64,000 nt of DNA from an uncultured Methanosarcinales archaeon (GTDB lineage Archaea > Nanobdellota > Nanobdellia > Woesearchaeales > GW2011-AR9): the NCBI GenBank assembly GCA_964373955.1, contig CAYJXA010000001.1, positions 108,301-172,300 on the forward strand, written 5' to 3'. The translations under genes and the position numbers were made by a program. The notes beneath the pieces were generated by a model. That model had not been told where the DNA came from and made no database searches. It worked only from the letters and a program-made list of their open reading frames with translations. Numbering within the stretch: position 1 is the first letter of the stretch; the number at the start of each line of letters is the position of its first letter. Shown one piece after another: positions 54,633-59,122 of the stretch.

Positions 54633-54695
54633 GGTTTACCTCACGAACTAATTAAAACACACCAGAAACCACTTTACATTAAAAAATAAAAATAA

Positions 54696-56252
54696 TTAAA
54701 ATGTGCCCAAGAGGCTGAATGCAAATTCTGCACGATTGTTTTGGACATCGATTTGCGCCGTTCCTCGTACTCCAACTGCATAACCATCTCTATTTCCATC
54801 ACGGAAGAGATCAACTGCAACCCCTGGAGCAACACCGTAACTTCTGGTGCTACCTGATTCTGCGCAAGCATCATTTGAGTCAGTGCCACAGCTAACTGCA
54901 TGTGGTTCACCAACAGCTCTACCATCCGCATCAAACAATTGCGACGTTCTCGTTCGAGCAACGGCAACTTCTCTATCGCTTGCGGTAAGGTCAACAATGC
55001 CACTAACTCCTGGAACCCATTTTTGACTAGGTTTCCAAGGTGTTCCTACTCGTAACTGAGCATGACCACGATAATGGTCAGTTGTTCCTCTCGTTCCAAT
55101 CATAGAAGAATCTTCTCGGTAATCTCCTTGAGGTTGGGATTGTGCTACGGGATCCAGATCGGAGGTGTCTGTAACTGCTCCGCCATGTCCAACTCCGCCG
55201 CCTAAGCCAACGGTGACGGAATCCCCTCGGTAGGTAACTGCAGCAACGACTGCGCCAGCAGCTGCTCCTCGATATCCTGCTTGCACTCCTGCTTCCAGCC
55301 AGATGCGTCGAGTATTATCATGATGTCCGAAGACGTTACGAGTAATCCGTTGTTCGAGTTCATGATAAGCTGCATCGTAAGCACCAGTTGCTTGGGTGCA
55401 TTGTCTTGCGACTGCATCCGCATGTTCTCTTCGCGCAGGTAATCCTCGTTGCCGTCTTTCAAGTTCTCGACGAAGTTCAATAGCTCTTAAAGCTCTACCC
55501 TCATCAGTTAAACCTTGTTCACTGGCAAGAGCATCAATTCTCGCAGAGAGAGAAGCTGCTTCCTGTGCAACGGCACTTTCTTCTCGCGCAACATCACGCT
55601 GAGCTTGATATGCTCCAGCACAAGTATCTTTCATTTTTTGTGCAATTCCAGCTAATCGTGCAAATTCAGGGGTTAATGCTTCCCTAAAAATTCTATGCAT
55701 ATATTGTGTGGTTGGATCTTTTTCCATTCTGTCCACTCTTACTACCAGATCTTCATAGCCTTCTAATCTCTCCACAAGCCCAGTAAGACTTGCTAAAAGG
55801 CCTTCTTGAGCAGCAGAAACACTTTGTTGATTTCGTTCAAGTGCATCTTGTCGTCCTGCTAAATCATCCTGGCGTTCACTTAATCCTACAACACCTTGAC
55901 CTAAAGCATCAACCGCACTTTGAAGACCGCTATAATCCTCGCCAGTTCTTTCTTGCAAAGCATCAATTCTTTCCTGTAAGCGTTGTAATTCGGCTTCATA
56001 ATCCGCATGCGTATGAGGATGTTCATGCGCTCGCACTGCTGGAGCAACTGCTCTTTTTCGTGCAGGTCTCTTTGCAGGTGCTGCTGGAGCTGCAGGACTT
56101 GGGGCTGCAGCAGCTGGTGAACCGCCAGGAACGAAAGTCCCGCCTTGCGTACCATCATCTGCAAACGCAGTTGCGGAAAGTAATGAAATTCCAACTGCTG
56201 CTGCAGGAGCTAAAACATATTCTCCAATCATTCTGGTTAATGAATTTGACAT
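54696..56252 (-). CDS. Secreted Ala/Arg-rich protein: signal peptide, long coiled coil, Gly/beta-rich C-terminal domain ending in Phe (bacterial OMP-like terminus)
   Basis: LAPAAAVGISLLSATAFADD signal. Heptad-rich middle. C-terminus ..NNRAEFAFSLLGTF. Confidence 0.5.
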   Translation of the reverse strand: MSNSLTRMIGEYVLAPAAAVGISLLSATAFADDGTQGGTFVPGGSPAAAAPSPAAPAAPAKRPARKRAVAPAVRAHEHPHTHADYEAELQRLQERIDALQERTGEDYSGLQSAVDALGQGVVGLSERQDDLAGRQDALERNQQSVSAAQEGLLASLTGLVERLEGYEDLVVRVDRMEKDPTTQYMHRIFREALTPEFARLAGIAQKMKDTCAGAYQAQRDVAREESAVAQEAASLSARIDALASEQGLTDEGRALRAIELRRELERRQRGLPARREHADAVARQCTQATGAYDAAYHELEQRITRNVFGHHDNTRRIWLEAGVQAGYRGAAAGAVVAAVTYRGDSVTVGLGGGVGHGGAVTDTSDLDPVAQSQPQGDYREDSSMIGTRGTTDHYRGHAQLRVGTPWKPSQKWVPGVSGIVDLTASDREVAVARTRTSQLFDADGRAVGEPHAVSCGTDSNDACAESGSTRSYGVAPGVAVDLFRDGNRDGYAVGVRGTAQIDVQNNRAEFAFSLLGTF

Positions 56253-56269
56253 TTTATTTTTTCCTCCAC

Positions 56270-57835
56270 TTATAGCTTATCTAATCCCAAACCAAATCTT
56301 ATGTCTTTGTCTCTGCCAACTTGAACATGAGCAGCACAGGCGTCCACTCCTTTTGCAATAATATCTGCCCTGAGAGGACCGTACAATGAATGCGTTTGAG
56401 CTCCAGGAACTGAACCAAGAGTAAGATCAACTAACTGGCCAATACCTAATTCACATGCCCCTCGTGCATCATTTCCTTTGTAACTACGAATAGAAACGGC
56501 AACAGGAACTCTTGCATACGCACCAACAATCTCTTGCCAAGAGTGATTAGCAACATACTGTCGAGCATCCCCTAACATAGTTGCTAAAAAATCAGTAGGT
56601 GCAGGACATACTGGAGCAGGTGGACAAACTACAGCAGGAGCTGGAACCACGGGTGGAACCGCCGGAGCTGTTGGAGCCACCGGTGCAGCTGGTACAACGG
56701 GTGCTGCAGGAGCAGCAACATATGGTGCAGCGGGACTAGCTGCAGCTGGTACTCCACCATCCATTCTTGGAGAGGGAGTTTGTGCAATATAAGGAGTTCC
56801 CGGAGTTGCTGGTGCAATAGGAGCAACGGGCGGAACTGGTGCAGCAGGTGCAGGAACTACTGGAGCAACTGGTGCTACAGGAGCCGCTGGTTGAGCTGGA
56901 GCTCCACCATCTAAACGAGGAGGAGGTGAAGATAATGCGCCAGCAGACGCTGCTGAAGGTGCTCCGCCGTCAGCTCTTGTAGCTGCTACGGGAGGAGCAG
57001 GACTTGCACTCGCGTCACGTCGTTGAGATTGAGCAGATGCAGAGCCATCGAGAGGAGCAGAATACCCTGCTCCGTCGCTTCCTGCATCTAAATTAGGATG
57101 AACGCCAGCGTCTGCATGAGAAACTGGTGCTGGACTAGGTCCACAGCCCCAGCCTTGATATGAACTGAAACCAATTGCTGCTGCTAACACTAACGTGCCT
57201 AAGCCAGCATACGTTGCAATTCTTTCCCCGCGAGTTCGAGGTCGAGGAACTAATGCTCGCAATTGTGCTCCCCATCCTAAAGTCTGAAGATTTTGTTGAC
57301 CTTGCCCTTGTTGTTGAACAGTCATTTGTCCTAAAGCAGCGAAGACAGCTACTCCATCACTTTGTGGAGCTAAACCAAAATAACTTGCGGTATCAGAACC
57401 ATGAAGGGTAGGTTGAAGAGCTTGATGCTGCGCAAAAACGTCCGCGATTGTTTTAGTGCCAACCCCAATCTGCGCCCATTCTTCCGCTCTAGCAGCAGGC
57501 AATTGTGCCACCACTCTGGGCAAGCCAACCAGTGCATGATCTGCTGCGTCAAAACTTTCATACGCAACAAAAGTTCGCAAAATTCGAATAAGATCGTCCC
57601 CTACTCTGGTTCTGTCCGCCGCCGGAACTACTTGCGCTCCCGGGGCGGCGCCTTCGCCAGTGATGTAAGTAACTGCAGATAATAAACGAGCATCGTCAAA
57701 ATTGTATGCAAGAGGCTGGGCAGGTGGTTGTGCTTGGTAATGATTACGAACTTCATCTTCAAAATCTGAAAGTCGTTGTAATAAATCCCGCGCTTCTTGT
57801 GTTTGAAAAGTATGCTGTACTTGTCGTGCTGCCAT
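56270..57835 (-). CDS. Membrane protein with cytoplasmic N-domain, one TM, long Pro/Ala-rich linker and C-terminal extracytoplasmic domain
   Basis: Start chosen at the ATG with a gaggt RBS (MAARQVQ...); the ORF track begins at an upstream GTG. PAxPV repeats over about 150 aa. Confidence 0.5.
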   Translation of the reverse strand: MAARQVQHTFQTQEARDLLQRLSDFEDEVRNHYQAQPPAQPLAYNFDDARLLSAVTYITGEGAAPGAQVVPAADRTRVGDDLIRILRTFVAYESFDAADHALVGLPRVVAQLPAARAEEWAQIGVGTKTIADVFAQHQALQPTLHGSDTASYFGLAPQSDGVAVFAALGQMTVQQQGQGQQNLQTLGWGAQLRALVPRPRTRGERIATYAGLGTLVLAAAIGFSSYQGWGCGPSPAPVSHADAGVHPNLDAGSDGAGYSAPLDGSASAQSQRRDASASPAPPVAATRADGGAPSAASAGALSSPPPRLDGGAPAQPAAPVAPVAPVVPAPAAPVPPVAPIAPATPGTPYIAQTPSPRMDGGVPAAASPAAPYVAAPAAPVVPAAPVAPTAPAVPPVVPAPAVVCPPAPVCPAPTDFLATMLGDARQYVANHSWQEIVGAYARVPVAVSIRSYKGNDARGACELGIGQLVDLTLGSVPGAQTHSLYGPLRADIIAKGVDACAAHVQVGRDKDIRFGLGLDKL

Positions 57836-57928
57836 GATGGTATACCTCGTACGAATTGTTAATACCACTGCAAAGTAGACACTTCTATATAAATCTTTTG
57901 CACTAAATTGCTAGCTGGGAGTGATAAC

Positions 57929-59122
57929 TTATACGAAACTTCCCCGGAGCTGGTACAGAATACCGAGGATAAAAAGAAGCATCAAGGCCGCTCCCAAAAT
58001 GAAATGTTTACCCAACGCATATTCTGGCGTTCGGTCTCCATACTTCTTCGCTTCCCAATACAAAAGAATAATTAAAACTCCATTCAAGCCTCCCGCAACG
58101 GCACCGGTAATATCTAATACTCGTAAGAACGTGGCTAAATTAAAAACAGCAATCACCAACGGCAAGGAAAATGTTAATAATAAAGAGACCGCCCTGCTTA
58201 TCTTATAATCATATTCGTAGACTTCTGTAAGTGCAATGCTTAAGGTCAGAAAAGAAGTAAACATCGACAGTATGGCCAAAAGGTTAGCGAATACTCCCAT
58301 CAAAGGGTTGGCGTACATGCTTAAAGCAATGGTCGCAATTCTCTCATTGGGCTGCAATAATTCAAATTGTTCTATGCCTACTAATCCCATGATAACTGCC
58401 GTGAAGACAATATATAACAAGATAGGGATGAGCGAGCCGATAATTATAGCTCGTTTGAGGAGCTTTTTATCTTCACCCAGAACTTCCTGCATCTCTGGAA
58501 TGGCGGGTGAGCCTAATAAGGAAAACAGGATTACACCATAAGGCAAAAAAACATAACCCCAGTTAAAAGTGGAGAGACGAGAAAAATCTAATTGCCGATA
58601 AGAAAATATACTAATAGACGCAACAACCACAAACAGAAGAAGAATTAAAAAAAGTTCTACTTTGCCTGTTGCTTTGACTCCTCTCCAGACAATGAAAAAA
58701 CCGATAATAAAAAAGAGAAGAGTGTAGAATAGCGGCGACCCTAGTTTGAAAATTGCCCGTAAGGATTCCCCTTCTCCAATAAGATAAGCCGTTAAAGCAC
58801 CATAAATAGAAAAAAGCATAATGAAAGTCATAACCCGTTTTCCCCATCGACCGAGATACTTTTCCGCATACCCAGTTAATTGGTGCTGTTCTTTGGTTCT
58901 TAGAACGATTTCACCGGTGAAAAGATTAAGGTACAAGAAGGCTAAGCCAAGTAGAACTATAAACAGGAATCCAATGATAAATCCGGCTTTCGCAACGACG
59001 TAAGGAATCCCTAAAATGCCTGCGCCAACGATCGTTCCTACGAGAGTAGTACTAGCCATCCATATTTTGTGGCGGGAAAAAAAACTGCTTCTTTCAGTCA
59101 TTTCACCTCTTTTTTGGAACAT
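57929..59122 (-). CDS. Amino acid permease (aromatic amino acid / Trp-Tyr permease family)
   Basis: About 11 TM helices. N-terminus ..WMASTTLVGTIVGAGILGIPYVVAKAGF. Confidence 0.7.
   Translation of the reverse strand: MFQKRGEMTERSSFFSRHKIWMASTTLVGTIVGAGILGIPYVVAKAGFIIGFLFIVLLGLAFLYLNLFTGEIVLRTKEQHQLTGYAEKYLGRWGKRVMTFIMLFSIYGALTAYLIGEGESLRAIFKLGSPLFYTLLFFIIGFFIVWRGVKATGKVELFLILLLFVVVASISIFSYRQLDFSRLSTFNWGYVFLPYGVILFSLLGSPAIPEMQEVLGEDKKLLKRAIIIGSLIPILLYIVFTAVIMGLVGIEQFELLQPNERIATIALSMYANPLMGVFANLLAILSMFTSFLTLSIALTEVYEYDYKISRAVSLLLTFSLPLVIAVFNLATFLRVLDITGAVAGGLNGVLIILLYWEAKKYGDRTPEYALGKHFILGAALMLLFILGILYQLRGSFV

Follow-up and report, generated by a model that had tools for sequence, protein, structure and literature searches.

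A conserved gene pair of Woesearchaeota-like archaea encoding a bitopic membrane protein together with a secreted protein predicted to contain an outer-membrane-type beta-barrel

Organisation of the gene pair

Two long open reading frames (ORFs), 54696-56252 (518 aa) and 56270-57868 (521 aa from an ATG at 57835), are encoded on the minus strand of the 64-kb stretch of DNA analysed here, which is referred to as the window. The pair had been singled out at this position in a preliminary description made from the sequence alone. The gene products are referred to as p518 and p521, and the following features are associated with their genes.

57894-57900, minus strand: purine-rich BRE-like stretch just upstream of the TATA-like box, read in the sequence
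57886..57893, minus strand: TATA-like box tttatata, read in the sequence, about 51 nt 5' of the p521 ATG
57844..57848, minus strand: Shine-Dalgarno-like GAGGT, 8 nt ahead of the p521 ATG
56270..57835, minus strand: p521 coding sequence (ORF, 521 aa), predicted bitopic membrane protein and partner of the barrel protein
56263..56267, minus strand: GGAGG Shine-Dalgarno motif within the 17-nt spacer from the p521 stop to the p518 ATG
54696..56252, minus strand: p518 coding sequence (ORF, 518 aa), predicted to be secreted and to carry a C-terminal beta-barrel on a helical stalk
54681..54695, minus strand: oligo-T tract ttatttttatttttt, immediately 3' of the p518 stop codon

The longest ORF of p521 extends to an alternative GTG start at 57868. 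The ATG at 57835 is the likely start because GAGGT lies at a distance of 8 nt before it, and the sequence MAARQVQ, with which all three database homologues begin, likewise favours this codon. The TATA-like box is situated in the 93-nt gap that follows the stop codon of a permease gene (57929-57931) and, with the BRE-like stretch, forms a putative archaeal promoter of the p521-p518 operon. No promoter-like element could be read in the 17-nt spacer between the two genes, which are therefore probably co-transcribed as one operon. The partner and barrel genes of the related locus L018 overlap (ATGA), and this suggests translational coupling. The oligo-T tract may serve as a terminator signal of the archaeal type. 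A scan for sigma-70 promoters and intrinsic terminators is uninformative for archaeal DNA.

Composition and codon usage

The composition of the pair has been compared with that of the 43 remaining ORFs in the window that are 150 aa or longer. With GC contents of 0.48 and 0.50 against a window average of about 0.42, the two genes are at the top of all ORFs, and the high local GC noted earlier is thus real yet modest. The values at the first codon position are 0.67 and 0.70 (next-highest ORF 0.59) and those at the second 0.52 and 0.57. Ala, Pro, Gly and Arg together account for 0.39 and 0.45 of the residues of the two proteins (0.33 at most in the other ORFs), and Lys, Asn and Ile for 0.05 in the pair (at least 0.09 elsewhere). 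The contrast drawn in the preliminary description with Lys/Asn/Ile-rich neighbours holds good, the two proteins being the most extreme in the window.

The third codon positions had been described as A/T-biased, and the codon usage as not obviously foreign. The bias is indeed present, GC3 of the pair being 0.23 and the lowest among all ORFs, but synonymous codons are used in a way that departs strongly from the rest of the window. The GC3 expected from the amino acid composition of the proteins and the codon usage of the window is 0.39, corresponding to z-scores of -7.6 and -8.0 for the pair, as against -3.3 to +3.6 for all the remaining ORFs. The low GC3 is common to all lineages that carry the pair, whatever their genomic GC, which argues for long residence and not for recent import.

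Host and conservation of the locus

The host is a Woesearchaeota-like DPANN archaeon, and ABCE1/RLI, a geranylgeranyl reductase and a YGR210-type GTPase are encoded in the window as archaeal markers; proteins of the kind described below are, as had been pointed out, unexpected in such an organism. The bacterial-type envelope genes Lgt (E-value 2e-68) and YidD are also encoded in the window. A reassignment of UGA, considered as an explanation for a split GluRS gene, has been rejected, as TGA terminates 9 of the 45 ORFs, including that of a full-length PGK.

The gene pair is part of a conserved order comprising a permease, the bitopic partner, the barrel protein, a giant Ig-like adhesin with He_PIG, Big_9 and PKD domains (Ig/PKD/cadherin-like) and a surface protein with an NPCBM_assoc domain and a C-terminal transmembrane anchor. 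The order recurs in more than 10 independent assemblies, and the partner gene is ahead of the barrel gene in every locus examined. Operon structure, conservation and synteny of the pair are established in silico. The pair is always found in the same syntenic slot, down to an identity of about 30% or less. Between the window and the locus L003 the pair shares about 30% identity while the flanking permease and p425 share 68%, which indicates the fast evolution typical of surface or host-contact proteins.

Relatives of p518 are few: a search of 1.84 billion cluster representatives identified 14. In word-indexed searches against 5.8 billion protein clusters p518 retrieved only itself, also when a three-sequence profile was used, and p521 retrieved two close relatives. 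No relatives were found in JGI metagenomes with profiles of p521 or in GTDB genomes with p518. Scans of viral contigs matched neither protein and hence gave no sign of a viral or mobile origin, and searches of Pfam, NCBIfam and PHROGs with both proteins returned nothing but noise from the helical region. The relatives were found only in contigs with the same gene order or in MAGs labelled Woesearchaeota, Nanoarchaeota or just archaeon. Some of the MAGs carry the automatic label 'uncultured Methanosarcinales archaeon'.

These data bear on two alternative explanations of the pair. The first is acquisition from a diderm bacterium, in which case p518 would be a diverged outer membrane protein (OMP) resembling OmpA, OmpX or OmpM and p521 a diverged TonB/TolA-like or anti-sigma protein. 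The fold and C-terminal signature of p518 are bacterial in type, the composition of the pair departs from the rest of the window, and Lgt and YidD are encoded nearby. We nevertheless regard this origin as improbable, considering that no bacterial homologue was found among the 5.8 billion clustered or 1.84 billion representative proteins and that the Pfam and PDB sequence searches are negative. Of the 14 relatives, two have a named source; both are annotated as 'hypothetical protein', and one comes from a Nanoarchaeota MAG. The contigs of four relatives were retrieved, and all four show the same gene order. The constant syntenic slot across highly diverged lineages and their shared low GC3 argue against the recent horizontal acquisition proposed earlier; an ancient transfer followed by divergence past recognition may have occurred.

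The second explanation is an artefact, either a chimeric or contaminant assembly or a barrel over-predicted by AlphaFold on Gly-rich sequence of low information. The composition is unlike that of the surrounding genes and the alignment used for AlphaFold2 (AF2) holds only 15 sequences, but independent Logan, ENA, JGI and several NCBI MAG assemblies reproduce the gene order, flanked by archaeal sequence on either side, which argues against a chimera, and archaeal markers lie within the window itself. Given, in addition, the agreement of the structural models and the strand periodicity of the raw alignment described below, an artefact is very hard to credit.

The bitopic partner p521

The domain organisation predicted for p521 is as follows.

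57224..57835, minus strand: residues 1-204, helical N-terminal domain placed in the cytoplasm by the positive-inside rule
57155..57223, minus strand: residues ~205-227, single transmembrane helix read in the sequence, with PRPRTRGER just before it
56600..57154, minus strand: residues ~228-412, disordered Ala/Pro/Val-rich spacer, from composition and an AF2 model without secondary structure
56273..56599, minus strand: residues 413-521, extracytoplasmic alpha/beta C-terminal domain of about 110 aa with conserved Cys

This membrane topology, as deduced in silico, is the one foreseen in the preliminary description, namely a cytoplasmic domain, one transmembrane segment, an Ala/Pro linker and a C-terminal domain. 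The transmembrane segment IATYAGLGTLVLAAAIGFSSY comes after an Arg-rich stretch and agrees with a helix at residues 202-224 of the AF2 model. That model, built from three sequences, is unusable overall (pLDDT 36.7, and below 50 in the N-terminal domain); residues 446-510 of the C-terminal domain attain about 60-76. p521 shares sequence identities of 56% with P0003, 60% with P0004 and 29% with L003:11345-12652, has positional analogues in every related locus, and has no sequence match in Pfam, NCBIfam, PHROG or PDB. Most partner homologues that were inspected, those of L003, L011, L007, L013 and L015 among them, contain a single hydrophobic segment.

The N-terminal domain is kept in L003 and shows weak similarity to the upstream proteins of L011 and L006; it is missing from the partners of L018 and L015 and is thus dispensable in some relatives. 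The spacer of about 180 aa consists of 28% Ala, 25% Pro and 11% Val, contains three R-x-DGG-x-P motifs and is far shorter in L003 and L018. It had been characterised as a PAxPV-repeat linker, of which the Ala/Pro/Val richness is evident but a clean tandem repeat is not: the region is of low complexity, and TRF detects in its DNA only an 18-bp unit in 1.9 copies and a 9-bp unit in 2.9 copies. The C-terminal domain is the conserved core of the partner family, with 76-77% identity in two close relatives; it is discernible in the partners of L003 and L018 and, by eye, in that of L015. The neighbouring protein p507 also has a mid-protein transmembrane topology, but a relationship with p521 has been rejected as sequence similarity is absent.

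The secreted protein p518

The domain organisation predicted for p518 is given below.

56160..56252, minus strand: residues 1-31, signal peptide of the Sec type (cleavage site AFA|DD), read in the sequence
56010..56159, minus strand: residues 32-81, disordered Ala/Pro/Arg-rich region ending in HEHPHTH, pLDDT below 50
55329..56009, minus strand: residues 82-308, six-helix domain, from AF2
54699..55328, minus strand: residues 309-518, predicted antiparallel beta-barrel of 8 strands, from which two long hairpins protrude

The signal peptide, long helical region and Gly-rich beta domain reported earlier for this protein are all recovered. The export signal (...LLSATAFA|DD), recognised in silico, is without a lipobox and is conserved among the relatives, and the His-rich motif HEH(P/S)HT(H/Y) is common to p518, L001, L002 and P0009. 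The AF2 alignment of p518, built from library matches, is shallow (15 sequences); the five models agree, with mean pLDDT of 66-75 (75 for p518 in the model used). The helices at residues 82-308, followed by the barrel at 317-517, give the protein the appearance of a long helical stalk with a C-terminal barrel. The longest helix spans residues 180-244, and pLDDT exceeds 92 over residues 190-300. Conserved Cys pairs occur once in this stalk and once in the C-terminal domain of p521. In the stalk, Cys is present at both columns (C211 and C285) in 11 of 12 sequences, and we infer that a disulphide joins them and that the helical domain is extracytoplasmic.

The predicted barrel

The pLDDT values across residues 317-517 of p518 are 84-92. 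In a Foldseek search of the PDB with this model OMP barrels fill the top 26 places, and in BFVD all the named matches at a probability of at least 0.9 are OMP barrels, the only exceptions being a phage tail protein and a putative S-layer protein. The predicted turns are short on the side of the termini and the hairpins long on the far side, as in OmpX and NspA. The protein ends in ...AEFAFSLLGTF, and a terminal Phe or Trp, mostly as G-x-R-F, is present in 18 of the 21 listed full-length family members and positional analogues. The resemblance to bacterial outer-membrane barrels and their C-termini, suspected from the sequence of p518, is thus borne out by two independent structural searches and by the family. 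From one AF2 model on this shallow alignment, p518 is predicted with good confidence to form a closed antiparallel amphipathic barrel of 8 strands with an OMP-like C-terminus.

Eight amphipathic segments make up the barrel, and the raw alignment itself shows the periodicity of the strands. One face is hydrophobic throughout the family (80% VLIFMWYA, 3% charged); the opposite face comprises 22% Gly, 16% Ser/Thr and 23% charged residues. This composition is consistent with a membrane barrel having the narrow lumen of OMPs. The alternating pattern by itself also fits a soluble barrel with a hydrophobic core. In that case p518 could be an 8-stranded barrel exposed at the cell surface, similar to lipocalin, YceI, hemophilin or the barrel that bacterial surface lipoproteins carry; p521 would hold it there as a binder of a ligand or of another envelope protein, with no second membrane involved. 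We consider this rather unlikely, at about one chance in four.

Sequence homology to any OMP family was not found by Pfam, PDB profile search or hhalign. The best Pfam matches, OMP_b-brl_2 (E-value 0.02, in one of 15 members) and OMP_b-brl (E-value 0.6, in one of 9), are far below the cut-offs; the search of the PDB with the family profile retrieved no OMP, and hhalign gave a probability of 1% against an approximate OmpX sequence. In the window no further OMP-like proteins (ORFs ending in Phe or Trp with a beta-rich tail) are encoded except p518, and no Omp85/BamA-like protein was found among the scanned ORFs.

Similarities to known envelope systems

A transmembrane beta-barrel with an aromatic end is considered a hallmark of bacterial outer membranes and of organelles that descend from bacteria with such membranes. 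The 8-stranded bacterial barrels of clan MBB (OmpA N-domain, OmpX/Ail, NspA, OprF N-domain, OmpW and PagL) share no detectable sequence homology with p518, and neither an outer membrane nor a BAM machinery is known from its archaeal host. They also stand alone or N-terminal to a peptidoglycan-binding domain, whereas in p518 the barrel follows a helical domain of about 230 residues. In the YadA-like trimeric autotransporter adhesins each monomer contributes about 4 strands after a coiled-coil stalk, in contrast to the complete monomeric barrel of about 200 residues predicted here, and YadA_anchor of Pfam has no match in p518 or its relatives.

The OmpM/SlpA-type tethers of Negativicutes and Deinococcus-Thermus and Omp-alpha of Thermotogae have an SLH domain, a coiled-coil stalk and a C-terminal membrane anchor or barrel (PMC3387000). 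Like OmpM/SlpA, p518 comprises a signal peptide, an N-terminal attachment region, a long helical stalk and a C-terminal barrel, and the spacing and tethering of two envelope layers would be its proposed role. It differs in the want of an SLH domain (no Pfam match in p518 or the 14 relatives), in its 8 strands as against a large porin barrel, and in a stalk that seems to be a Cys-stapled helical hairpin or bundle and not a simple parallel coiled coil. Its attachment would make use of a separate membrane protein, p521, and not of a cell-wall polymer.

p521 had been likened to TonB or anti-sigma proteins, a comparison that stands for topology but not for membership. A membrane anchor helix, a long Pro-rich spacer and an alpha/beta C-terminal domain, about 100 residues long, that faces a barrel protein are shared with TonB/TolA, and the partners of L018 and L015, in which the cytoplasmic domain is absent, have exactly this three-part layout. 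Most members of the family add a cytoplasmic helical domain of 200-800 residues, unlike TonB/TolA, and the spacer of p521 is Ala/Pro/Val-rich instead of Glu-Pro or Lys-Pro. TonB_C (PF03544) has no match at E-values up to 10 in four C-terminal domains of the family, and similarity to TolA is also absent. MotA_ExbB/ExbD proteins were found neither among the scanned ORFs of the window nor among those listed for the related loci, and no TolQ/TolR is encoded nearby. The N-terminal domain of p521 has no match to an anti-sigma domain in Pfam or NCBIfam, and the neighbours of the pair are the permease and surface proteins with no adjacent sigma-factor gene; to our knowledge archaea do not use sigma factors.

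Ihomp1 (Imp1227) of Ignicoccus hospitalis is a small pore-forming alpha-helical protein. Like it, p518 is an archaeal protein proposed to be located in a membrane other than, and external to, the cytoplasmic one, in an organism living in close contact with other cells. Ihomp1 is the known archaeal outer-membrane protein, and archaea with a double membrane have been reviewed (PMC4243693). The DPANN archaea studied to date have a cytoplasmic membrane and an S-layer (PMC11329633). No archaeal beta-barrel protein of OMP type is described in the searchable archaeal literature.

Possible role of the p521-p518 module

We propose, with about even confidence, that p521 and p518 together act as a tether between two membranes or as a host-contact module, and that this module is native to DPANN archaea of the Woesearchaeota-like type. 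p518 would be exported by Sec, and its C-terminal 210 residues would fold into a small 8-stranded barrel of the transmembrane type, of the OmpA/OmpX/NspA kind, with the termini and the helical, probably disulphide-stapled stalk on one side and the two long conserved beta-hairpins on the opposite side. p521 would be held in the archaeal cytoplasmic membrane by its single helix and would display, on the flexible Ala/Pro spacer, the small Cys-containing globular domain outside the cell. From the linkage of the two genes we propose that this domain binds the stalk of p518. In this way the pair could link the cytoplasmic membrane with another lipid layer, into which the barrel is presumed to insert. 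A partner or host cell membrane at a contact site is the most likely candidate for that layer, and an archaeal outer membrane a less likely one. The giant adhesin and the anchored surface protein encoded next to the pair may act together with it.

Somewhat more tentatively, and at a little under even odds, the p518 family would represent the first native archaeal transmembrane beta-barrels of OMP type, placed in a second membrane of their own cell or driven into that of a host. In the former case this clade of Woesearchaeota would possess an outer lipid membrane tethered by p521-p518. In the latter case the barrel would be the anchor of the DPANN attachment and exchange apparatus, having arisen independently or diverged past recognition from bacterial OMPs, and would work without the BAM machine. 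Such a family would bear on the means by which the ultra-small DPANN symbionts attach to and exchange material with partner cells, for which we know of no membrane-inserting component at present, on the existence of a second membrane in some DPANN lineages and on the assembly of small beta-barrels without BamA. The barrel domain of 210 residues and the partner domain of 110 residues are expressible targets, and could also provide labels for cryo-tomography of uncultured Woesearchaeota.

The most conserved motif of the barrel is located on the far-side hairpins. Its conservation fits a conserved partner of the archaeon itself better than a variable target on a host.

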